Below, one piece after another: positions 1-14,634 of a stretch of DNA of 14,634 nucleotides. Under the pieces are notes generated by a model, which did not search any database, was not told the origin of the DNA, and saw only the letters and a list, made by a program, of their open reading frames with translations. The stretch is taken from the NCBI RefSeq assembly GCF_006345805.1, contig NW_021825785.1, positions 1 to 14,634 of the forward strand, read 5' to 3'. The translations under genes were made by a program, and so were the position numbers. Source of the stretch: Octopus sinensis. Its lineage: Eukaryota. Numbering within the stretch: the stretch's first letter is position 1; each line of letters opens with the position of its first letter.

Positions 1-173
1 CTACCATACTCACATATATATAGTTATATATATGCGCATATCGCACATGGAATTAAGAAGCGGGCATTTTAAACTGGTCATGTTGCATACGTGCATATAT
101 ATGTATGTATACGTTCGTATATGTAAGTAGTCGTATGTTGTATGTTTATGTATTTATGTTTCTCTCTGCGCAT

Positions 174-232
174 ATTCCACTGATGAGGCAAAGCATTTCT
201 AAATGCAAAGACAGAAATCCGGGATCTGGAAT
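174..232 (+). ncRNA. Type I hammerhead ribozyme-like motif (family A, copy 1)
   Basis: Stem I ATTCCA(174-179)/TGGAAT(227-232); core CTGATGA 180-186; stem II region GGC-AAA-[GCATT-TCTA-AATGC]-AAA-GAC-A; GAAA 214-217; minimal stem III ATC-CGG-GAT; predicted cleavage after AUC (C226). Base of stem II is imperfect. Confidence 0.75.
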
Positions 233-466
233 TATCCAGTAATTTTTTACTAGTTTTATTTTGTCGTTTTGTCTTCTCTCCTTGTGCTATATGAACACTT
301 AATGTGGTTTTAGAGTCAGATCCTGGCTGCTATTTTCAGCATGGCGGTATCTCGTAGATACCCTAATTTATAATTTTAATAATAATCATTACTTTTGAAT
401 GTTTTTATTTCCATGCTGGCCACTTGATAAGATCGTTATTTAATTTAAATTAACGATCTTATCCTT
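174..466 (+). mobile_element. Non-coding hammerhead-bearing repeat, family A copy 1 (Penelope pLTR/retrozyme-like)
   Basis: Colinear motifs and helices shared with 3590-3875; ends in a 13-bp hairpin next to (TA)n. The 5' boundary is uncertain. Confidence 0.6.
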
Positions 467-467
467 T

Positions 468-469
<2 letters not shown>

Positions 470-533
<64 letters not shown>

Positions 534-627
534 GTGTGTGTGTGTGTGTGTTTGTGTATGTGTGTATGGTGTGTGTATGTGTTTGTGTATATGTGCGTGT
601 GTGTGTGTGTTGTGTGTGTGTGTGTAT
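470..627. repeat. Compound microsatellite (TA)n(TG)n
   Basis: Directly visible dinucleotide repeats. Confidence 0.97.
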
Positions 628-628
628 A

Positions 629-995
629 GGCGCAGGACTGGTTTTGTCGTATCTTGCTTAACGACCAGGGTTCAGTCCCACTGCGTGACATCTTACGTAG
701 GCGTCTTCTACTATAGCCTCGGGCCGACCAAAGCCTTGTGAGTGGATTTGGTGGACGGAAACTAAAAGAAGCCTGTCATATATATATTTATATATGTGTG
801 TGTGTGTCTGTTTGTCCCCCTACCATCGCTTGACAACCAATATTGGTGTGTTTACGCCCCCGTAATTTAGCGGTTCGGAAAAGCGGAATGATAGGATAAG
901 TACTAGGCTTACAAAGAATAAGTCCTGGGGTTGATTTGTTCGACTAAAAGCAGTGCACCAGCATGGCCGCAGTTAAGTGGCTGAAATAAAAGAAT
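629..995 (+). mobile_element. tRNA-derived SINE with internal (TA)/(TG) tract and LINE-derived 3' tail
   Basis: Starts GGCGCAGG; decayed A box; B-box-like GGTTCAGTCCC 669-679; internal microsatellite about 779-807; 950-986 matches the LINE 3' end (5509-5545, -) at 28/37 nt; A-rich end. Confidence 0.85.
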
Positions 996-1247
996 ATATA
1001 TATATATTTATATATATATATACATACACGCATACACATATACATATATACATATGTACATATATATGTATATATATATACATATTTATATTTATTAATA
1101 CGTATATATAAATATATTCAGAAACGTGTATAATTATATAGATACTCTATATATACCCTTATATATATACACACACACACACACATATATAAATATGTAC
1201 ATTTTTATATATACACATACAAACTTATATATATTTTATATTTTTAT

Positions 1248-1296
<49 letters not shown>

Positions 1297-1390
1297 ATAT
1301 ATATATATACGTGCGTACATATGATATAAATACACAAGCGCACAAACACACACACACACATATCTATGTATGTACGTATGTATGCATGTA
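994..1390. repeat. Compound TA/CA/TATG microsatellite field
   Basis: Directly visible. Confidence 0.95.
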
Positions 1391-2679
1391 TATATGTATG
1401 TATGTATAGTTCTCCCTTCAAACGTATCCAATCTCCAGAAAATTAGGTGCCATTATTTATGATACACGTGTTTGCATGAATGATTCGCTTCAGTATCTGC
1501 TCGGCTTTGCCACAACATTTTTAGAAGCTAAAAAGTAACAAAGAACAAAAATGTAAACAAATCTAAAAAGAATATACAGTGTCTATTGTCTTATTAATGT
1601 TTACCAAGGAAAAAGGAATAAAGATTGGACAGTCTTTCCTTTCTTTTCAAACTGTTGCTTATTATTATTATTTTCATTTTTATTATTGTTAATGTTATCA
1701 CTATTATTATAAGTTCTTCTTCTCATTATTATTATTATTATTGGCAAGTTATTCCCATATTAAGTACCGGCCCTAACTTTGTTTGACATGTCACATGCGA
1801 GGAGAGCTAAGGGTTTGAGGGAAATTTTTGTAATCAGTAACTCGTAAAATGAAATCCCTCACTCTCTCTCTCACACACATACATACACACATACACCTTA
1901 ATACACAAATATATAGCTATACATTCTTTTTTAGATATTTCTGGTTAAATATAGTATAGTATGAAAAGCCAAAAATAAAGAAATATTACTGAAATAATAG
2001 ATATAAATAGGAAAATTTTATTCAGAAATTGCATGTTGATAGCAAAAAGAAAACCATGAGAACAAACCACAGCATTAATCGTTGATTCCTCTGTTGAACA
2101 ATTTATGTCAGCTTTGCCAATCTAGCAGAAACGTTGCCAGGAAGAACATCCAACCAATATCTGAAGTGGAAACTACTCCACCTAACAAAGCTTAGTGCCA
2201 GGCGCGACACCCTAATCCAGACCTAGGAGGAACGCCTTATCCGGGAACCGACTGTTTCGGAGGTTTCAACAGCGATGGGAAATAATGTTATATTAGCTGT
2301 GAGTGAAGAAGAGCAACTTACAGCTGCGAGAGGAAATTGAAAGTATCGAGGCTGCTTTTAATGGTGTCCTTCAGAGTTGAGTGGGAAGGTGTTCATTTCG
2401 ACAAAGAAGAGCGTGGATGCTGTTCTAAGTCTTTGCTAGTAGATTCACGATAGCATTTATGTGGCTGACGGACGCGGAGACCGAATAACAAGGTAACTCC
2501 GATGTGTGTGTACTACTAGTCGAGAAGCTCCGCACGGCGAACAGGGTCCCGTGTCCATCCAGGTCCTACTGTTTTGTTGCAATGCAGTTTCTTGACAGGA
2601 GAAGTGGTGTTATTTGGTGGAAGACTGAATCGTCATCTTGGCGGAAGTATACTGAAAAAATTGACCCATCGCATTGATT

Positions 2680-3450
2680 GGGCATGTCTAAGAGGTCTAT
2701 TATGAACAGTAATGGCCCCAGAACAGTTCCCTGGGGGACGCCACTTAGGAATTCAGTTTCCTCAGAAAGGGCACCATTGGTTGTAACTACCTGACATCTG
2801 TCTTTGAGGAAATCATGTAGCCACTCTCCCAGTTTACCAACAATGCCTAGTTCTCGTAGCTTATGACTTATCATGCCATGATCTACCTTATCAATTGCTT
2901 TTGCAAAGTCAAGATATATCACGACGACTTCCGAATGGTCAAGCAGCTGTTTCAAAACCCAGTCATAATGCTGTAGGAACTGTGTGAGGCAGTTTTTACC
3001 GGGACGGAAGCCTTGATGTGTATTGTTCAGCGGGTCATTTTCTTCTAGGAATATTATCAGCTTCTTTCTGATGATTCGCTCCATGACTTTACTGATATGC
3101 GAAGTCATAGAGATGAGTCTGTAGTTTTTGGCCTCTAATCTGCTTCCACCTTTGTAGATCGGGCATATAATGCTTTCTTTCAGCTTTTTTGAAAGTCTAC
3201 CACTTGCAAGGAAACTTTGGAAAAGTATCTGAAGTAGTTTCGCTAAAGCCTGCTTACATGACTTTAGGAGAATAGCTGGGAAGTCATGAGGAGCAGTTGC
3301 GGAGCATGAACTCATTTCATCAATGACCACTGATACATCTGTCTCCTCAATTTTAATTTAATCGACGATTGGGTCTTCCTTTTTTAGAGCTGCAATATCG
3401 AAAAATTCAACCGGATTTTTTTATTTGCATGTATCCAAGGCGGGAAGTGA
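2680..3450 (-). mobile_element. CR1-group LINE reverse transcriptase fragment (N-terminal RT motifs; stops before YADD)
   Basis: ORF 2566..3330 has PIYKGG, NYRLISMTS..SKVME, QGFRPG, YLDFAKAIDKVDH, SGVPQGTVLGPLLF; homology ends at DMP (2680-2688). Its N-terminal part aligns with 6485-6700 of the larger LINE. Confidence 0.92.
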
Positions 3451-3875
3451 AGATACTTACTCACGTGTCTTGAATGGGCTGGAGTGTTTCTATTTTGGAT
3501 GTATTTGGGGTACTTAATTGTGCTTATGACTTAGTGTTTGCTTCTTCCATGGGTATGAGTAAGTATCTCATTTATTTCTTTTACCACATTTATCACTGAC
3601 GCAGGGAGGGCTCTTATGAGCTAACCCTGAAATCGGTCCGATGTAGTAATAATGGAATTTTTTAGAAATTTCTGTCGACTTTTTTCGAGTAGCATGCATA
3701 GTGTGAAAAAATTATATGGTTAATGGACAATATGTCCAATTTTTCGGCATATTTGGCATTAGGAATTTTTTCGTTTGCCCTTATTTATGAGTTATATAAA
3801 TTTAACATTTAAAGGAATTTTTAACATGCTGGCCATTGATGAAATTTTTTTTGAAAAAGAAAAAAATTTAATCCT
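3451..3875 (+). mobile_element. Non-coding hammerhead-bearing repeat, family A copy 2
   Basis: Same order and spacing of motifs as 174-466 (core CTGA to CATGCTGGCCA: 229 vs 232 nt); terminal hairpin then (TA)n. Confidence 0.6.
3590..3649 (+). ncRNA. Degenerate type I hammerhead ribozyme-like motif (family A, copy 2)
   Basis: Stem I TTATCA/TAGTAA (1 mismatch); core CTGACGC 3596-3602 (variant of CUGANGA); stem II AGGG-AG-[GGCTC-TTAT-GAGCT]-AA-CCCT; GAAA 3629-3632; palindromic stem III ATCGG-T-CCGAT; position 17 is G3643, so probably inactive. Confidence 0.65.
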
Positions 3876-3884
3876 ACATTAGAT

Positions 3885-3940
<56 letters not shown>

Positions 3941-3981
3941 TATAATGTATGTATGTATATACGATTTAATATATACGATTT

Positions 3982-4077
3982 AATAAGAAATGCTGAGGTC
4001 GATCCATTGCACTGAAATTCTTGAAGGCGGTGCTCAGCTCGGGCGTAGTCTAATGAGTGAAATATATAAAAGATAAA
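3982..4077 (+). mobile_element. 5'-truncated, diverged SINE 3' tail (same tail family as 629-995)
   Basis: AATAAG..CTGAGGTCGAT..ACTGAAA..AAGGCGGTGCTCAGC..GG.CGTAGTCTAATGAGTGAAA aligns with 917-990. Confidence 0.7.
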
Positions 4078-4109
4078 TAATACAAGATATAGCCTGGAAC
4101 TTATTAAAT

Positions 4110-4170
4110 CATATATATTCACACTTGCATGCATACATACATACACACATACATAACACACAATACATGC

Positions 4171-4235
<65 letters not shown>

Positions 4236-4536
4236 TGTGTGTGTATGTGCATGCATACTTACATGTATAGAGTGACATATGCCTTAATTATTAATGTATA
4301 GAAAGACATAGATCCATACGCCTAAGATATAAGATAGTATATCTATACGCACACACACATACACACACACGCACAAATATATATGCATATGCACACAAAT
4401 ATGTATACACTCATACATACGCCTACATATGTATATACGTACGTATGTATGTATGCATATGTATACGTACAACGTATGTATGCATGTGTGTATCTATCTT
4501 ATCTATTTATCTATATGCATATATATATATACACAC

Positions 4537-4611
<75 letters not shown>

Positions 4612-4760
4612 CTTACAGTCACACATATATACACGCACTAATTAATCATGCAAAACATACACATATATACGTAAAGTTATACACATATCGGCGCACACAA
4701 CTAAACTCACGCGCACACACGAATAAACAGAAATACAGACATACCAACACAAACACATAG
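4110..4760. repeat. Compound TA/CA/TACA microsatellite field
   Basis: Directly visible. Confidence 0.93.
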
Positions 4761-4832
4761 CAATTCACAATTTAACTTTATACAAAATGTCCGAAAAATG
4801 GCGTCGAGCCAATTTGTTGTTATTTTTATTAT

Positions 4833-4933
4833 TCAAAAATTTCCTAAGCAAGTGTCCATTGCAGATGCTGCTAAAAATTCCACTGCAGTATTTCTTGGAA
4901 TCGTCTTACCATTTCTAAGACCATATCTTACAG
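4833..4933 (-). other. Candidate host-gene exon (terminal exon, or 24-nt micro-exon 4910-4933)
   Basis: Minus strand: pyrimidine tract ending TTTTTTACAG, then a phase-1 frame xVRYGLRNGKTIPRNTAVEFLAASAMDTCLGNF* with AATAAA just after the stop; an internal donor-like ATG|GTAAGA lies 24 nt in. No homology recognised. Confidence 0.35.
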
Positions 4934-5001
4934 CTGTAAAAAATAGGAAGCAGTGGTAGGGGAATGAGAGTTTACTGAGGAAACAATTGTGAATTCACAA
5001 T

Positions 5002-5002
<1 letters not shown>

Positions 5003-5053
<51 letters not shown>

Positions 5054-5256
5054 TACATATCTTTATAAGTACATATATTTATAAGTAGATATCTTAATAT
5101 GTAAATACAATTCTTTCATATATGGGTGTGCATGATGTATATATATACACACACACATATATGATGTATATATATACACACACACACACATATATGATGT
5201 ATATATGCATGATGTGCATGATGTATATATATACACACACACACACATATATATAG

Positions 5257-5306
<50 letters not shown>

Positions 5307-5480
5307 ACATATATATATGTATATATAGACATACATTAATATATATATATATATAATATATATATATATATATGTATATATAGATATATATGTATATATA
5401 TATAGACTTACATTAATATATACATATATATATATATATAGACATGCATTAATATATATATATATATTATATATATATAA
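5003..5480. repeat. (TA)n field with higher-order minisatellite units
   Basis: TAAGTACATATmTTTA x3 (about 5050-5097); ATGATG(TA)n(CA)n x3 (about 5131-5250); AGACATACATTAAT x3 (5327-5453). Confidence 0.93.
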
Positions 5481-5572
5481 ACCTATTTTATTTTATTTTT
5501 TTATATAGTTTCAGCTCACGAGCTGTGGCCATGCTGGGGCACCGCCATTTGCTGTTGCCACATGATTTTACT

Positions 5573-7945
5573 TCACGAATGCTTTTTAGCAACTGCCATT
5601 TGGTGCATGAGAGAGTTCGATGCAGCAGCCCTCATCTGCACCTCCTGCGGTGAAGTTGGTTCATCCGAGACACCTGACAGGATGAGATCCAGTCCTACTT
5701 TAAAGACATCCACATCCACCCTATGCAAGTCCCTCATGTTCTTCTGGAGGATATTGAAGAGCTGTGGGCCTCTGAAGCCCAGGCTATCACAGTATCTTGT
5801 CCTACATATTGATGGCAAATTTGGAGTCCTTGGCACCACGCAGTGGCGCCCAGTTCTGGCATTTGTGTAACTCTCGATGCCAAAGTTTGGGACAAGTCCT
5901 TCCAGGATCTTCCAGATGTATATTATGGCATATCTCTCTCGCCTACGCTCCAAGCTCTTGAGTCTTTCCCAGTTGCTTATATGCTATCTTCGTGTAGCTT
6001 CGTTGGATCGCCTCAAGTTCTGTGATCAACTTGACACTGGATGGTGACCATAGCCGAGAGCAATAGTCAAAGTGGCTTAGGACAAGTGTCCTCCAGAGGA
6101 CCATCATGTTTTCTTGTTCTCTTGTTCTAAAGGTTCTAAGAATCCATCCAGCCAGCCGTCTACATTTCATTGTCAGTTTAGCAACATGTACATGAAAGGT
6201 CGCGTCATCACTCATGTGAATACCCAGGTCACGCACTGATTGTGCCTCTGGGATTGCAATCCCTCCGGGTCCAGTGTATTCCTTGGGTATTGCATTCAGT
6301 TTTGCATGCTGATAGTATAAAGCTTGAAACTTTTCAGCATTGAACTGCATGCTATTCTTTTCAGCCCACTTGTATACTTTGTCCAGCTCACATTGCAGGT
6401 GCATAGTGTCTTCAGGGTTCTGTATTACATGTGAGACTTTTGTATCATCCGCATAACTTGTGATCGTGGCTCTCTGCGTGACTTTAGTGGTCTTGCTAGG
6501 AATCTTTTACATACTTTTAGAAGGATTGCCGGGAATCCATCGGGGCCAGTAGCTGAGTTTGTTTTCATTTCATCTATAGCCTTTATTACATCGTCTTCCT
6601 TTATATTGATGTAATCAATCATCGCCGCCTCTGATTTTATATCTGCAGTGGTAAAGAAGTCAGTTGGATTGCTGATTTGGAAATGCCCTAGGGGTGGAGT
6701 GAAAACACTCTTGAATTGCTCATTCAGTATTTCACTTACCATCATTGGATTTCCTGTGAGTGTGCCATCCTTTTCAAGAGTGGCCCTATCCTGCAGTGCA
6801 CCGTAGCTGTTTCTTTGGCATACCTGCAGAAAGCTCTGGGGTTAGATTTTATGTTGTCTATAGCCCAGGCTTCTTTGTCTGCTCTTTCCTTTTCATGGGA
6901 GAGTTGCAGACATTTTTCAATTTCCAACAGTTTTATTTTCAGGCGGGACTTTTCACTGCTTTCAATTTGTTTGTTTAGGCGATTTGAAATTTTTGTACGC
7001 CGTCTCATTAGAATTTTCCTCTCTCTGGGGATTTTGTTCTTGTGTACAGTGGCCTTTCTCTCTGGGACACATTTGTAGCATATGGCTTGCATTACAGACA
7101 TGAATTGTTGAAGTTTCACGTCGATGTCTGGTGAGGAGAGACATTCAGGCCAGTTTTGTTTGAGGATCTCTTAATTTGTTTCCAGTTTGCCTTATGGATG
7201 TTCAAGCTGGAAAGATTCTGAGAGTTTCTTGTAGGCTGCATGTCCATGCTTTCCTTTGGCCCGTACATGGTCAGCTCTACCATGTTGTGATCCGAGAGTA
7301 GTGTCGGTGTCACTTTCACATTATGTATGAGATCCATATTATTTGTGAAGCAGAGATCCAGTGTGTTACCTGCCCTGGTTGGTTGGAGTATTACTTGCTC
7401 CATGTACAGGGTGTTGATGAGGTTCAGGAGGGACCTCGCCTGTCCTCGTTCACATCGTGTCATTCCTGGGAGAGAAAGGCCTCGGGCCATCTGACATTGG
7501 GTAGATTGAAGTCTCCCATAAGAAGTACACTTATGTGTTGTTCTAATGTGACTAGAACTTCTTCTATTTTTATAAGGCAGTCTTCAAACTTGCCTACATG
7601 GCTTGGGGCATCTGGAGGGTGATATGTAGCACACACAACTACACCAAGCTGCCTTAGATGTACAATTAGTGTGTCACACACCGAGTTTGAGTATGACAAA
7701 AAAAACTGGAGTGTGAGGTCCTCACGGATGTACATAGCAACTCCTCCATGACTCCTTTCTTTTCTGTCGGTCCGTAGTACAACATACTGTGGTATGTGTA
7801 ATTCCGCATCTACTATGTCCGGTTTCAAGTGTGTTTCCGTAAGTGCTATGCATAAGGCTTGATTGCATGCAACAAAGTCTCCCAAGAACGGGATTTGTGT
7901 CCTGTTACTGAGTGTTAGTAGTCCTCTGATGTTCAGTAGGAGCAT
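5573..7945 (-). pseudogene. LINE ORF2 (APE endonuclease + reverse transcriptase), frameshifted and deleted
   Basis: APE motifs NIRGL, LTETHL, GGVAMY, YHPP, GDFNLP, TLDLCF, SDHNMV across ORFs 7460..8029 and 7116..7490; RT pieces in 6425..6745, 5943..6404 and 5573..5953. Confidence 0.92.
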
Positions 7946-8445
7946 CGAGGTGAGGTGTATGCTGTTGCTGGTGGTGTCCACCTTGGGTCTATTTGCTGTG
8001 GTGGTCTTGTGTATTGTGGATAGTCCCACCTGCGAGCTTGAGTTTGATGGAGCCAGGTTAGCTGCTGTACAATCTTTTGTGCCATGCCCAAAAAAGATTC
8101 TTGTCCAGCAGCTGCCCTTTCAACAACATGTTGGCGGTTTGTGGCACGCACCACATCTGCGTACCTCCGTTTTGGGGCAGGCGGTGCGTGGTCCATCCCT
8201 TTTCCTTTTGGTAGTTGGTTTCTGACCTGTTTCGTGTCTCTGCGGCAGGGTCCCCGATGTGCAAAACGGCAGCCTGCACCTTCCTCTCAATGCCAGCAGG
8301 CACCTCTCAGGTAGAACCTACACACCCGTGTGCGCTGTCTGTTTCCATCCTTTTTGGTATATGGATAGTCAGGTTTGCTTCTATCCTTGGCTGTTTCATT
8401 TTTTGGTTTTGTTTGAGTTTTAGTTTTAGTTTTTCCTCCTTTTAT
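7933..8445 (-). pseudogene. LINE ORF1 remnant with CCCH-type zinc finger
   Basis: Manual translation in the frame of ORF 7933..8196: VCRFYLRGACWH*EEGAGCRFAH (C-x7-C-x8-C-x3-H, 8322-8257); the frame ends overlapping the putative ORF2 ATG at 7945. Confidence 0.7.
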
Positions 8446-10260
8446 TTATTTTTTGGCTCTTTCATCTCCATGGCTTTTGGTGCTGGTAGGAGCACTTGCC
8501 CTTGGGTTTACTTCCCGGGCAGGTTTCTCCCTTGAATCTTCTTCCTGTGTGTCTACCAGTTGGGGGTGACTTCTTTCATCAGCACCCGCGTCTCCATCCT
8601 TGCCATCTTTACTTTGTTGGTTGTCAAAGATGGCATCAAGCGTGCCAATATGAGATCTTATAAGTGCATAAGAGCGTATAAACTCCTGCTTCTTCCGCTC
8701 TATCTGAGCTATCGTCCTTTTATATCCACTGCTCTTCAGCGCAGCTGTAATTATGTTGTTCGGATTATCTCCGTCGGCGAATTGTCAGGCTCTTACGAAC
8801 GACGCCAATTCGTCACGTCTCCAGGTTCTGGACATGTTGGATATTTTATTTATTTATCTATCTAATTATATTTAAAATTTAATAGTGTGATAGAGGGTAG
8901 AGAAGAAATACAGAAAGAAAGTGACTGTGTATTTAGAGAGATTGAGAGCTGAGAGAAGATAAGAAGAGAGTAAGAGAGGAAAGTTCGCGACTATATATTT
9001 AGAAAAATTGAGACGCTGAAAGAGGAAAGATTGTGTGACAGAAGTGAGTTAATGAACTTATGTAGACACGCAACCAAATTTAAAATGTCAAATATAAATA
9101 CACCATATGGATAGAGTATATATTTTGTATTTTTGATTTTTAAAATTTTGATTTTGACTCTTGGACTAGTATGTAAACGCGACGATGGATTTGTTTCGCG
9201 CTATGCAGATTTCATTCCGTATAGCAAAGTCTCATGCATATATTTTGTTTATTTTGTTTATATTTCTACATATACATTAGGAAAAACCTTCGGATTTGTT
9301 TATTTCATGTTATTGTATTGTATAGGTATAACTTGATTTTTAATTTATAGATGATCCAAAATAGGGTGTTATATTTTATATGTCTTTCGTATATTTTTCA
9401 TTATTGCACTCACCTTTTTTTAAAAAGCAATTTTGTCAAAAATTAGAATATTGATGTAAATATGTGTATAGCCATGGATATGTATTTGTAAGCATGCGTC
9501 CCTGTGTATGTGTAAGTGAGCGTATGTTTGTGCTTAAGCACACACATACACGACTGTATGTGTATGTATCCATTCGAACTTATGTATTTGTGTACTTGTC
9601 TCCATATATGTCAATAACGTGGTTACACAGCTTGTATACATAATTTTTCTTATTTCGTTTTTTCCCCCACCCCTCCTTTTTCTTTTTTCCTTCCCCTTCT
9701 TCGTTCCTTTTTTCTCTCTCTTCCTTTCTTTCGTTTTTTTCTCTAACTGATACTGGTACATACAACTTTACGTCCCCCTTACTTAAGCTGTACTCCGTAA
9801 ATAAGAAACGCTACATTAGCATCGATGATTTTAACTTGCGTGCGAGATAGATTGCGTACATATATGTATGCATGCATTTGTGTGTATATTTTATATTTAT
9901 ATTTATACGTCTGTATATGTATGGCGTTTGCACGCATCCTTCTGTGTATGTTGATATATATATGTACACTTTAATATGAATATGTATTGCAGTGTAATAT
10001 TTATAATGCTTTTAATTTCCATGCATCAATTATATTTCCTTCATTAATGTCAATATGTATTTTATTCAATGTCAGGTTTTTTTCCTCGAATTTTATAATT
10101 TTTATAATTTTTATATATATACATATATTTTTGAGCTCATTTTTTTGTTTATCGCTCGAAGATTGACCGTTATTTCTAAAGGGCCAATCAAACAAGTCCA
10201 TTTTTTAAAGGTGTAGCGTTTGTAAGAGTCTGGATTGAATTGATATATCGGTTCCATTCT

Positions 10261-10314
10261 AGCAAAAACTATCTGATGAACGGCAACGAGAAACTCAGAG
10301 TAACAGATTTTGTT
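10261..10314 (+). ncRNA. Minimal type I hammerhead ribozyme-like motif (family B, copy 1)
   Basis: Stem I AGCAAAAACTAT/ACAGATTTTGTT (10 of 12 pairs); CTGATGA 10273-10279; stem II A-CG-GCAA-CG-A; GAAA 10290-10293; palindromic stem III ACTC-A-GAGT; predicted cleavage after GUA (A10302). Confidence 0.8.
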
Positions 10315-10410
10315 GAATTTTCTGCTGCTTTAAATAAAGCATATTACTCTACCACTGGTATTTGAGTACTCTTTTTTCCACCTTGTTTCACATTTATGTG
10401 TTTACTCCGG
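10261..10410 (+). mobile_element. Hammerhead-bearing short repeat, family B copy 1
   Basis: Similar to the reverse complement of 12157-12234 through ..GCTTTAAATAAAGCATA; ends at (TA)n. The 5' boundary is uncertain. Confidence 0.65.
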
Positions 10411-10575
10411 TATATGTATATATATGTAGACATACATTAATATATATATACTTATATATATATAGACATACATTTTATATATATATGTCTATGTAGGCGT
10501 ACATTAATATATATATATATATACATACTTATATATATAAAGACATACATTATATATATATATATATATATATTA
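10411..10575. repeat. (TA)n field with AGACATACATT units
   Basis: Directly visible; units start at 10428, 10464, 10495 and 10541. Confidence 0.93.
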
Positions 10576-10881
10576 TTTATGCGCCCTTTTCAAGCCTAAC
10601 CAGGCTTATGGGCCCGGTTTCCGGGTTTTTATGGCGTATGTGTTCCCCCCAGCTGGACGGGACGCCAGTCCATCGCAGCGTTACTCAAGAAACAGGAAGA
10701 AAGAGTGAGAGAAATTTGGGACGCAAGAGTACAGCATAGGTTGTCACCACCCCCTGCCAGAGCCTCGTAGAGCCTTACGTGTTTTCGCTCAATAAACAGG
10801 CACAACGCCCTGTCTGGGAATCGAAACCGCAATCCTTCTACCGCGAGTCCGCTGCCCTAACCACTGGGCCATTGCGCCTCC
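10576..10881 (-). mobile_element. tRNA-derived SINE (second family)
   Basis: Minus strand starts GGAGGCGCAA; A box TGGCCCAGTGG (10871-10861); B box GTTTCGATTCC (10827-10817); about 300 nt, ending in ATAAATAATA and (TA)n. Confidence 0.88.
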
Positions 10882-10909
10882 ACACACACACACACGCACA
10901 CATATAAGA

Positions 10910-10954
<45 letters not shown>

Positions 10955-11000
10955 ACACACACACACATACACATATTAACGTGTATGTGTGTGTGTGTTT
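10882..11000. repeat. (CA)n/(GA)n/(TG)n microsatellites
   Basis: Directly visible. Confidence 0.95.
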
Positions 11001-11295
11001 CATTCCACATGTATTACACACGCAAATAATAGTTTCACCTACACGACAAGTACGTTCATCGGGCGCTGATTATTTTATGAAACTAAGACGTTTGAATAGG
11101 AAACCGTGCGAGAGGTGATGATTCTAAAGCAAACCATATTTAATGGAAGATTCCTCTAAATATGGGTTGCTTTAGAATTACTTCTCGCACGGTTTCCTAT
11201 TTAAACTTCTTGGTTTCATAAAATAATCAGCGCCCGATGGACGTACTTGTCATGTGGGTGAAACTATTAGTTGCGTGTGTAATACACGTGGAGTG
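11001..11295. mobile_element. Foldback palindrome / probable MITE
   Basis: Arms 11001-11148 and 11151-11295 are reverse complements with about 14 substitutions and one 3-nt indel; 2-nt spacer; TA directly outside the right end (TT on the left). Confidence 0.85.
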
Positions 11296-11403
11296 TATTA
11301 ATACATTAATATTGGACTTTCATGAGATGGAGTATTCTTTTTGTTGAATATTGCACACAGATCACTTTGCTATATATATACGTACATACATACATACATA
11401 CAC

Positions 11404-11998
11404 ACAAAGGAATACTGGTGGAAAATACCACTGAAAACTTCAATAAAATGTAAGCACAACAGGCCTTATATAATGATTTGGGTTAAAGAAGAGAAACTGC
11501 ACAGTTGTGGAAACCAGCTGCCCATTGGATGTCAACATAAAGCTGAAGATCAGTGAAAAAGAGAACACCTATGCTGAACTATTGAGAAATCTGCAGTTAC
11601 TCTAACCAGATTACAAGTTCAGATTTACACCTGTAATTATCGGGGCCCTGGGATATGTAACACGCTGCCTAAATACCAATCTTGAGAAATTAGGCTTCTC
11701 AAAACCAGAAAAGAGAAAGTTAATTCGAAGACTACAGATCCAATCCATCACTGGAACTGTAAAAATCAGTAAAACTTTCCAGAAGTTTATCATTTAAATA
11801 TATATGAGCGTGTTTAGATATGTAACTATATGCATGAGAATACATACATAAAACATACAAATCTGCACATACATACATACAAACAAAAATATCCTGTTGC
11901 TGATGTTGAAATTCCAATGAAGGAAGTTTAGGTTAGGAATCTAGGTTAGAAACCAGTTCTTTCGCTATTGGCAAGAAATCTTGAAATAAACTGAATGA
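11404..11998 (+). mobile_element. 5'-truncated RLE-type (R4/Dong-like) non-LTR retrotransposon 3' end
   Basis: Translation across one frameshift (about 11500) and one stop (11603-11605): EYWWKIPLKTSIKCKHNRPYIMIW..TVVETSCPLDVNIKLKISEKENTYAELL..PVIIGALG..FII* (stop ends 11797), the RPD..E..K..Y layout of a restriction-like endonuclease; then about 200 nt of 3' UTR. Confidence 0.85.
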
Positions 11999-12000
11999 CG

Positions 12001-12013
12001 CACGCACACACAC

Positions 12014-12048
<35 letters not shown>

Positions 12049-12124
12049 TAAAAATATATATACTATACATATATATATGTATGTATAGTATAGTATATAT
12101 ATATATATACAAATATATATACAA

Positions 12125-12156
<32 letters not shown>
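12001..12156. repeat. (CA)/(TACA)/(TA)/(TG) microsatellites
   Basis: Directly visible. Confidence 0.95.
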
Positions 12157-12192
12157 AGGTATACTTTTATTAAAGCTGCTAAATTATCACAA

Positions 12193-12234
12193 AACTGTTA
12201 CTCATAGTTTCACGTTCCCTCTCGTTGGACAGTT
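12193..12234 (-). ncRNA. Degenerate minimal type I hammerhead-like motif (family B, copy 2)
   Basis: Minus strand reads AACTGT-CCAACGA-GAGGGAACGT-GAAA-CTATGAG-TA-ACAGTT: perfect 6-bp stem I and spacing identical to 10261-10314, but the core is mutated (CCAACGA). Confidence 0.7.
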
Positions 12235-12344
12235 GAGACAAATACATATCACAACTGAGTATATATATATATATATATACATGTGTGTGTATTATGTATG
12301 TATTATATACACATATATGTATGTATGTGTGTGTGTGTGCGTGC

Positions 12345-13490
12345 ATCAATCCAAAGAAGGCCCCTACCCTTCTACGTTAGGACAGAATACAGAATAGACA
12401 CCATTTTCTTTGAGATGTAGTCTCCTCCCTACATGTTTGTACCAGATATCCCAACAATCAACCTTTTAGTCGGCCACCTTCTCCGGTACCACCAGCATCA
12501 CCTCCTCTTCCACCACCTCTCTTTTGCTCTCACCCCCTCAAAAATGTTCCTCTGCCTAAGTATCACATTCGTCCAGTCTAATGGCATTCTTTTCAAACAG
12601 ATCCCAGTCCTGCCGTTGTGCCTTTGCCTTTCAATCCTTCTGGTCAACATCAGTATGGACCTAATTCTGTCTTCCCCTCGAGAGGCAGCTGCCAACTACA
12701 TATAAATTCATCAATGTTGCGGGTCACATTACTTTTGAGGCCGAACATCAAGACGACCCTCAATCCCTCGCTCTAATTAATTACCAACTCAAGATTACAG
12801 AAGAGGGATTCATCTATACAAACTTCTGCTTGTGAGAGGCCTGCAAGGGACACATTTATGCTCTACAAAATGGCGCTTCCTACCAGAGTCACATAGACCT
12901 ACGACCAAAACAAAATTTACCTGATACGCAATAGGTTGCAGAGAGGTAGTAATATAGCTGCTAATACGAAAGGACTTCAAAAGTTTTTACAAACATCGAT
13001 TTTTACCATTTTTACTGAACACCGGAAAGCTATTATGGATGGGTGAGATACCCACGTTTTCAAAGATGATATTTATATTCTGAGACGATCATTTTAATGA
13101 TAGAGCCGCTGCTGCAATCCACAGAGAGGTACCGAATACACAGATGATACCGAGTTCTTTCTGACTCGAAATCGACCAAAGAACAGCAACAAGTCAGACA
13201 CACTGACCTATTGTACTAACAACAATATATATAGTCTTGCGTTGAAGAGCCCACATAATGTACCAAATTGTCCGCAGTAAATGTGGTGATTGATTTGTAG
13301 GAGCCACCGACCAAAAGCTGTAATATCCTGATCCAGGAACACGAGTAATATATGAGGATTTCAATCAATAGACGTCCAAAGGAATGCTACAATTCAGAAT
13401 TTAGAGTTACCATTAATACAGCGGAATGCAACATCGGTAATTTCAGGATCAAACTAAACCTTTACATTAATTAACTAAGACCATCTATTA
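12345..13490 (+). mobile_element. Heavily degraded Penelope-like element (RT + GIY-YIG endonuclease)
   Basis: Manual translation: PFSL/DVVS (12401-12425, RT motif A); FKQIPVLPL..SILLVNISMD (motif B-like); HITFEAEH..SLALINYQLKI; DTFMLYKMALP; IMYQIVRSKCGD*FVGAT (13255-13308) then IQEH; FRIKLNLYIN*LRPSI (to 13489). The order matches PLE ORFs. Confidence 0.78.
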
Positions 13491-13709
13491 GAAACAGACA
13501 ATGGGCTGATTGTTTAGTGTAGCAAAAACCATTCTGCACGTGTCACATTCCCAACAGCTTCCCATACAATTGAGCAAAATATACCAATCAACCACTTCCG
13601 TATTATACTCCATTTTTGTTTTTTTCGATGAAGGGCTATTAATCCCAATATTTCGAAGTGAAAAGTATGAGGAAATACGTTGTTCTGTCTTCTTTGCTTC
13701 CATTTTCAT
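13490..13709 (-). mobile_element. Possible hAT-like transposase N-terminal remnant
   Basis: KKTEQRISSYFS..SKKTK followed by DW(L)YF..WECDTC..F, resembling the W..CxxC..F start of a TTF-type zinc finger; weak and frameshifted. Confidence 0.3.
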
Positions 13710-13759
13710 TCCTATATTTCAATTTGCATTGAATTGGTTTTCTAACTATCAATTTAAGC

Positions 13760-14029
13760 CTTATCTATCTATCTCCATCCATCCATCCATAAGTAAGTAA
13801 GTAACTATCTATTTATCTCTACATACAAAATATATTTTACACATATACACATATGTATGTACACATACATACATATATATAGATAGATACATACATATAT
13901 ATATATTTATATATAGATATATGTATGCATAAGTAACTTAATGTATGTGTATTTACATATATGTAGATACATGCATGCGTATCTATCTATTTGTATATCT
14001 ATCTATACATACACACACGTGTATGTATT

Positions 14030-14065
<36 letters not shown>

Positions 14066-14145
14066 TAAGTTGATCCTTACATATGTGTGTACATACATTC
14101 ATACACATATATATACACGAACATATATATATATATATATGTCTG
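13760..14145. repeat. Compound TATC/TACA/TA/GA microsatellite field
   Basis: Directly visible. Confidence 0.92.
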
Positions 14146-14634
14146 TGTGCAGGCGAATATCTCTGAATGCATATGAGTGCGGGAACGCAATTGTTTGTAA
14201 AATAAAAAGAGTAAAAGGGAGATAACCGATGGCAAACAATCCAGCACAATGCCAGCAATCTTATCCACCATTGTAGGAAAGAAAGTAAGTAAAGAAGTAG
14301 AAAGAGAGAAAAGAAAAAGAAAGAAGGAAACAAGGAAAAAATAAAATATGAACATTACAAACTGACATTGTCCAAATGGGAAATGATTGTACAAATAAAC
14401 AATAAAACGCCAATACAAAATGCTTATTTTTCAATGGAAGGCGTTAAAACAAATTTTGTCTCACTTCGTTCGCCATTTTCTTTTCATATTAATTCCGTTT
14501 CTTAAGCACAAATATGTACACATAGATGGCAAAATATATGTGTGTATATGTTTATGTATGCATGTAAGAATATAATGATATACATATACATAGGCATAAA
14601 TCTTTGTATGCATGCAGCTAACTCACTTTCTCTC

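Follow-up and report, generated by a model that had tools for sequence, protein, structure and literature searches.

A branched RNA fold downstream of the hammerhead in retrozyme-like repeats of Octopus sinensis and its probable part in Penelope-type copying

Non-coding repeats of Octopus sinensis contain a real branched RNA domain, located downstream of a hammerhead ribozyme, as the first-pass annotation of this DNA had proposed for a conserved domain with a three-way junction. The element that hosts the domain is a member of a described class, the non-LTR retrozymes and Penelope pseudo-LTRs; the fold itself is apparently undescribed so far. Because the fold carries both of the fixed points at which copies end, it is a likely handle by which a Penelope-type enzyme would grip the RNA and start copying. 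We consider it probable that the fold is an RT-binding and double-initiation element for a borrowed Penelope-type RT.

The repeats and their features in the window

The window is a stretch of 14,634 nt (contig NW_021825785.1, positions 1 to 14,634, forward strand) from the 2.7-Gb genome of O. sinensis. The two segments of interest, 304-465 and 3716-3875, are decayed copies of abundant, dispersed, non-coding repeats of about 490 nt with a type I hammerhead, referred to as families A and B. The features of the two copies, all on the plus strand, are as follows.

37-466 (+): retrozyme-like copy of family A, truncated at the 5' end; full unit about 492 nt; (TA)n follows; 95% to the family majority
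175-231 (+): type I hammerhead of family A, cut predicted after 226; core at 180-186 and GAAA at 214-217; helix III near-palindromic
283-293 (+): 5' strand of the outer rod P0, family A; predicted only, from the minimum free energy (MFE) fold of the whole unit
304-423 (+): branched core of the family A copy, from sequence and MFE fold
304-308/419-423, 314-328, 333-336 and 337-344/411-418 (+): P1, P2, U-run and P3 of family A
346-362, about 370-389 and 391-402 (+): P4, P5 and P6 of family A, P6 decayed in the window copy
378-386 (+): site 2 (inner copy-end) of family A, in the AT-rich P5 hairpin; unused by the window copy
426-466 (+): terminal hairpin P7 of family A; strands 426-438/451-463; site 1 (outer copy-end) at about 466
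3462-3880 (+): family B copy, 5'-truncated; unit about 486 nt; 94% to the family majority
3591-3648 (+): type I hammerhead of family B; predicted cut after 3643
3716-3836 (+): branched core of the family B copy, from sequence and MFE fold
3716-3720/3832-3836, 3724-3738 and 3745-3753/3823-3831 (+): P1, P2 and P3 of family B
3755-3779, 3784-3800 and 3805-3816 (+): P4, P5 and P6 of family B, P6 decayed in the window copy
about 3790-3804 (+): site 2 of family B, at P5
3838-3880 (+): terminal hairpin P7 of family B; strands 3838-3851/3860-3873; site 1 included

The predicted cut sites lie 77 nt (A) and 72 nt (B) before the outer helix, a correction to an earlier estimate of about 70 nt. The window copy of the family B hammerhead has two core changes, including a G at the cut position, and judged by these changes is probably inactive. 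A LINE fragment adjoins this copy upstream, and (TA)n lies downstream. In family A the partner strand of P0 is predicted to be the sequence corresponding to 37-47 in the following unit, so P0 would be possible only in a multimer or a circle. A splice-donor-like GTAAGT occurs shortly upstream of both hammerheads (123-128 and 3559-3564); a splice joint was not seen in contigs of four runs guessed to be RNA.

Several other elements were observed in the window. A disrupted LINE with endonuclease and RT frames occupies 5480-8830 (minus strand), and its 3' tail (about 5510-5560) resembles the tail of a repeat at 630-990; this resemblance suggests that the two are a LINE/SINE pair. We take the repeat to be SINE-like. 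A 263-aa open RT fragment of a second LINE lies at 2566-3357 (minus strand), and the family B copy abuts it at 3461. An inverted repeat at 11001-11295 is MITE-like, with 119-nt arms that are 91% complementary.

A first look at the genome yielded 3437 (A) and 2422 (B) candidates, totals that are not copy numbers, and 40 candidates of each family were scored. In the flanks of the repeats, partial tandems recurred about every 490 nt, truncated copies lay in inverted orientation, and (TA)n adjoined the 3' end. Family A sequence was also found in sequencing runs under four organism labels and in assembled contigs of the guessed-RNA runs; those contigs show presence, not circles, strand or expression. 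Two patterns derived from the structure, their spacings chosen so as to leave out A and B, matched 116 and 49 times, versus 1 and 6 for the reversed control. Most matches were variants of A or B, and families C to G were revealed among them. For each of C, D, E and F, DNA searches then yielded 30 loci. Families B, C, D and E served to build a covariance model, R1, which revealed families H and I inside other loci, after which I was sampled. The list of families is a lower bound, with seven sampled (A-F and I) and G and H known from 1-2 loci. In scans of metagenome contigs (at least 120 stretches) and viral contigs (7 stretches) the patterns were too loose, and R1 had no match in any of the 87 of those loci to which it was applied.

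Pairwise core identity among A-F was 53-77%. By motif reading, a hammerhead core with a palindromic helix III was present in 7/7 family majorities, and the core was intact in 21/23 parsed copies of family A (cut base included) and 24/27 of family B. Unit length was 486-537 nt, as determined from junction segments in five families plus I; none was found for F. No attached ORF was found in 180 loci of A-F, and PLE fragments near these loci were set apart by (TA)n or inverted, where inspected. At 10260-10410 (plus strand), the window contains a third, short hammerhead-bearing repeat with (TA)n at its end; R1 has no match there, so this third repeat lacks the fold.

Evidence for the fold

The helix strands and the CTwATTTAT motif listed in the first-pass annotation are all present at the stated coordinates, and unconstrained MFE folding of both segments gives the same fold, which bears out the proposed common topology. 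The description was incomplete in extent: P5 and P6 inside the inner helix, P7, and the outer rod have been added. In each family majority, folded without constraint, P1 encloses P2, the U-run and P3; P3 encloses P4, P5 and P6; and P7 follows. The two segments, called poorly alignable in that annotation, are not unrelated. The cores of families A and B are 62% identical, and the likeness is therefore one of homology plus covariation.

Stability of the fold depended on the copy that was examined. Copy A folds at -49.5 kcal/mol (z -6.7), and 0/200 shuffles were as good, whereas copy B alone (3716-3875) has a z score of -1.3, with 18/200 shuffles as good. Copy B is a decayed member of its family, the majority of which folds at z -5.2. 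The majorities of A-F have z scores of -6.7, -5.2, -4.3, -7.1, -6.2 and -3.7, and that of family I, in which P6 is absent from the MFE fold, has a z score of -3.4 (0/200 shuffles as good for each of the seven). The plus strand was more stable than the minus strand in 7/7 cores, and G-U pairs numbered 17 on the hammerhead strand versus 5 on the opposite strand over six families.

Covariation evidence comes from seven related families and represents few independent events. In P1, P3 and the basal part of P7, where anchors in the sequence fix the register, 116/119 cells paired; distinct two-sided changes kept the pair in 5/5 cases, and one-sided changes kept it in 4/7 and broke it in 3/7. P4, P6 and P7 still pair despite differing sequences among families. 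In D and I, the three-pair stem of P6 is a different one, capped in I by a C(UUCG)G loop. A plain MAFFT alignment of 19 natural copies had 83% of cells paired versus 37-45% for slid partners, and its covariation score was 0.188 versus 0.156 +/- 0.010 when shuffled (1/500 shuffles). Pairs with a two-sided change showed no excess in this alignment (9 versus 8.5 in shuffles). R1, which was built without family A, found the window A copy at 65 bits, and the next match in the window was at 21 bits. The model-fitted alignment of 49 matches, which is biased towards structure, was 85% paired with a covariation score of 0.353 versus 0.182. RNAalifold on plain alignments recovered P3 only, or P1, P3 and P7. 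P2 was poorly supported (51-56% paired); its closing pair was G-A in 9/33 copies of the A lineage, and a within-lineage test of that pair gave no support.

Conservation was highest in the fold (61%, versus 53% and 55% in the flanking parts of the unit and 48-49% when shuffled). Thirty positions of the fold are invariant, of which 23 are paired and 7 are unpaired and scattered, and the sequence of P1 and P3 is conserved beyond what pairing needs. The suggestion that the fold belongs to no described family was upheld. A whole-window Rfam scan gave no match on the fold at gathering score, scans of the two segments alone had best E-values of 0.89 and 3.1, and there were 0 Rfam matches in 16 family loci; the hammerhead models did not score in the segments or in these loci. 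ARAGORN was likewise negative for the fold. The possibility of a SECIS element was dismissed, as family A has no AUGA/GA quartet by eye.

Copy ends and probable function

Copies with a complete fold stopped within 22 nt of P7 in 35/40 cases for family A and 34/43 for family B, and nearly all of the remainder continued into the next unit. The 5' ends were scattered, with no fixed 5' site in the fold. Copies extending well past the cut site made up 6/10 (A) and 5/12 (B) of a sample that was not selected for ribozyme coverage, and 14/83 copies overall were longer than one unit. Since copies run through the cut site, the template would be an uncut multimer or a re-ligated circle. The domain had been described as coupled to the ribozyme; the hammerhead is indeed upstream, but the many copies that run past the cut site do not fit the coupling as first worded. 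The motif (TA)3 was found 25 nt or less from the 3' end in 21/40 A and 34/43 B copies, a raw rate in a TA-rich genome.

Two-armed insertions were present at 91/210 loci, or 86 after removal of five duplicates (L213, L247, L276, L278 and L303). Ends were binned relative to the end of P7 as site 1 (0 to -33) and site 2 (-59 to -92), bins drawn after inspection of the data. One end fell at each site in 54/86 insertions, both ends at site 1 in 4/86, both at site 2 in 1/86, and one end at neither site in 27/86. These loci were the best BLAST matches to queries ending at P7 and not a random sample; the choice of query favors site 1 on one arm, and the other arm was unselected. Site 1 is the foot of P7. 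Site 2 is 59-92 nt upstream, in the inner loop, in or beside the AT-rich P5; for family A it is based on inverted arms that stop 80-88 nt before the end of P7 in 3/5 two-armed loci. Arms ending at site 2 often continue directly into (TA)n. Both sites are AT-rich, and the ends are thus blurred by similarity to (TA)n.

Because copies end at two fixed sites, the Penelope "tail" here corresponds to the 3' half of the fold. The insertions have an inverted, 5'-truncated arm and a tail on a single end, and the partial tandems and back-to-back arms at (TA)n are a Penelope-like footprint.

The following route would account for these ends. Multimeric RNA would first arise by tandem or read-through transcription. 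The hammerhead, which likely works as a dimer by way of its palindromic helix III, may cleave this RNA, and circularization by a host ligase may follow. The stack of P1 and P3 with its U-rich linker would be the binding place of an RT/GIY-YIG protein, whose nuclease would cut both strands of (TA)n. One DNA end would then prime at the AU-rich stretch just past P7 and the other at the AU-rich P5 region in the inner loop; a single dimer on a single RNA would probably supply an active site for each. Each cDNA would extend in the 5' direction past the ribozyme site, over a variable length, with the two products then joined back to back. The outcome would be one arm with and one arm without a 59-92-nt "tail" that comprises P6 and P7 together with the 3' strands of P3 and P1.

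Three functions had been offered for the domain, namely an RT-recognition signal, a stability element, and a second catalytic motif. The RT-recognition signal is favored since both fixed copy ends map onto the fold. As to stability, the fold could contribute to a general scaffold that stabilizes or packages a circular RNA, with ends set solely by AU-rich patches annealing to cut (TA)n. Whole-unit folding gave a layout common to 6/6 families with a known junction, in which the fold and the stretch directly behind P7 sit within a long predicted outer rod whose strands can pair only across the unit junction. Circular units fold strongly (z -4.9 to -8.4, 12 shuffles each), with the plus strand better by 27-48 kcal/mol in 6/6, and the circles of published retrozymes are reported to be highly self-paired (accessible text of PMC7229834). 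Structure extends over the whole unit of about 490 nt, so the branched domain may be just a component of a general scaffold; the two sites are both AU-rich. However, other AU-rich patches of the unit were rarely ends among the loci examined, the pairing of site 1 with site 2 outnumbers same-site pairing by 54 to 5, and the excess conservation of P1 and P3 is more than a pairing scaffold calls for. We regard this alternative as unlikely.

The element might instead act as DNA, as a promoter or as a GIY-YIG nuclease site, with the hairpins forming in single-stranded cDNA. The strong conservation of the helix sequences would suit a DNA site, and for the Penelope nuclease of D. virilis a requirement for the "tail" sequence on plasmid DNA has been reported (cited in the accessible text of PMC11167929); the G-U pairs, the lower energy on the hammerhead strand, and the two-sided long-range changes all fit RNA, and a DNA role is very unlikely. 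For a second catalytic RNA, self-cleaving or ligating, one could point to the compact multi-way junction, the conserved sequence, the adjoining ribozyme, and the C(UUCG)G loop on P6 in one family. Most invariant positions are paired, which makes catalysis unlikely, the seven unpaired ones are scattered, Rfam has no ribozyme family match, and the spread of 5' ends leaves no fixed site in the fold; we judge such an activity most improbable. Neutral drift of repeats with shared ancestry, with helices arising by chance, draws on the homology of the families and on the window B copy, which alone is no better than shuffles. It is scarcely credible any longer and already largely refuted, as 7/7 majorities beat all 200 shuffles and P4, P6 and P7 pair on with different sequences. 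An RT-binding and initiation element thus remains our preferred reading.

A candidate enzyme for such an element is present in the host genome. Intact PLE ORFs of about 811 aa have an RT domain, and inspection by eye suggests a GIY-YIG-like region at the C terminus, behind a Cys linker; we take this family to be of the Neptune type. Its copies end at (TA)n with an optional two-site 40-nt tail, which was on one arm only in L091 and L094. At the 3' end the element folds differently, forming a rod of its own around both ends, and the branched fold is absent. No coding partner bearing the fold was found in 49 Neptune-type loci or 180 family loci, which counts against the RT-binding reading; the protein search for one was dominated by a single Neptune-type family, whose intact 3' end lacks the fold. 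R1 matches in the 49 Neptune-type loci were considered as a coding partner and rejected as separate repeat insertions, where inspected; copies of B, C and D beside PLE ORFs (L109, L034, L036, L217 and L104) were separate insertions as well. By exact text search, the core motifs were absent from the Naiad/Chlamys/Hydra supplement of PMC8557442.

Other PLE sequences were also observed. At 12340-13770 (plus strand) the window has a decayed PLE-like ORF, in which a GIY-YIG-like remnant is discernible by eye and a hammerhead-like motif lies at about 13626-13666; only 7 short relatives of this stretch were found, all at the 3' end. L093:1188-3623 and its relatives form a young, intact Neptune-type PLE family, the 3' UTR of which has by eye a hammerhead-like motif (U3-A8 core variant) about 130 nt before the end. 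A TTCTGT-like motif starts the 5' strand of the outer rod in the Neptune 3' UTR of L101 and in families B, C and E. This very short motif possibly reflects remote kinship of the Neptune element and the repeats.

Relation to known systems

Metazoan non-LTR retrozymes are units without coding sequence that measure a few hundred nt, contain a type I hammerhead and are dispersed as monomers and short tandems, and their mobilization by Penelope-like elements has been proposed (PMC7229834; bioRxiv 10.64898/2026.07.22.740005). The octopus repeats resemble them in all of these features of the unit. They differ in having units of 486-537 nt with longer helices II and III, and the accessible text of those reports gives MFE drawings of single sequences, with no covarying cis-domain or RT starts described. 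Penelope pseudo-LTRs have partial tandems, an inverted 5'-truncated copy, a one-ended tail, (TA)n targets, and a hammerhead with a palindromic helix III (accessible text of PMC3846280, PMC8557442 and PMC4209133). The insertion pattern, one-ended tail, (TA)n and ribozyme are shared with the octopus repeats. In contrast, the tail in the accessible text of these reports is 30-40 bp, whereas in the octopus repeats it measures about 59-92 nt and makes up the 3' half of a conserved fold; unlike the pseudo-LTR of an autonomous PLE, the repeats had no attached RT and GIY-YIG ORF in the 49 Neptune-type and 180 family loci.

The closest experimental comparison is with the anole Poseidon element PAc, for which the accessible text of PMC11167929 describes RT starting at two internal sites that bracket the tail, a minimal RNA just downstream of the hammerhead, uncut RNA as template, and a protein predicted to be a dimer that cuts both strands. 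Both systems have two starts around a tail downstream of a hammerhead. However, the PAc sites are in one AC-rich stem-loop inside the start of the ORF, and no conserved branched fold is described in that text. Nor was a conserved branched fold carrying both start sites described in the literature covered, with figures, supplements and subscription journals outside that coverage.

Telomerase RNA has TERT-binding domains, including the CR4/5 three-way junction, and a template boundary. The likeness would be that of a junction-bearing domain that holds a related RT by an internal start, with a short target-like alignment sequence. This is analogy and not homology, as there was no sequence or model match and no Rfam match. 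More tentatively, and with more doubt than we attach to an RT-binding role as such, the fold could be a dedicated scaffold with a telomerase-RNA-like role, where a single, probably circular RNA offers its two starts to the two active sites of a Penelope RT dimer, spaced by the stack of P1 and P3.

If so, Penelope-type retrotransposition would have its first defined cis-acting RNA domain, one that would also be a portable tag for double-ended insertion into (TA)n. It would address the questions of how Penelope-like RTs, the sister group of telomerase, choose their RNA and why tails are one-ended, and it bears on the borrowing of Penelope enzymes by retrozymes, which has been proposed and is unproven. 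With 155-170 nt, two mapped sites and compensatory variants supplied naturally by seven families, the fold is a ready substrate for work on binding, priming and structure.
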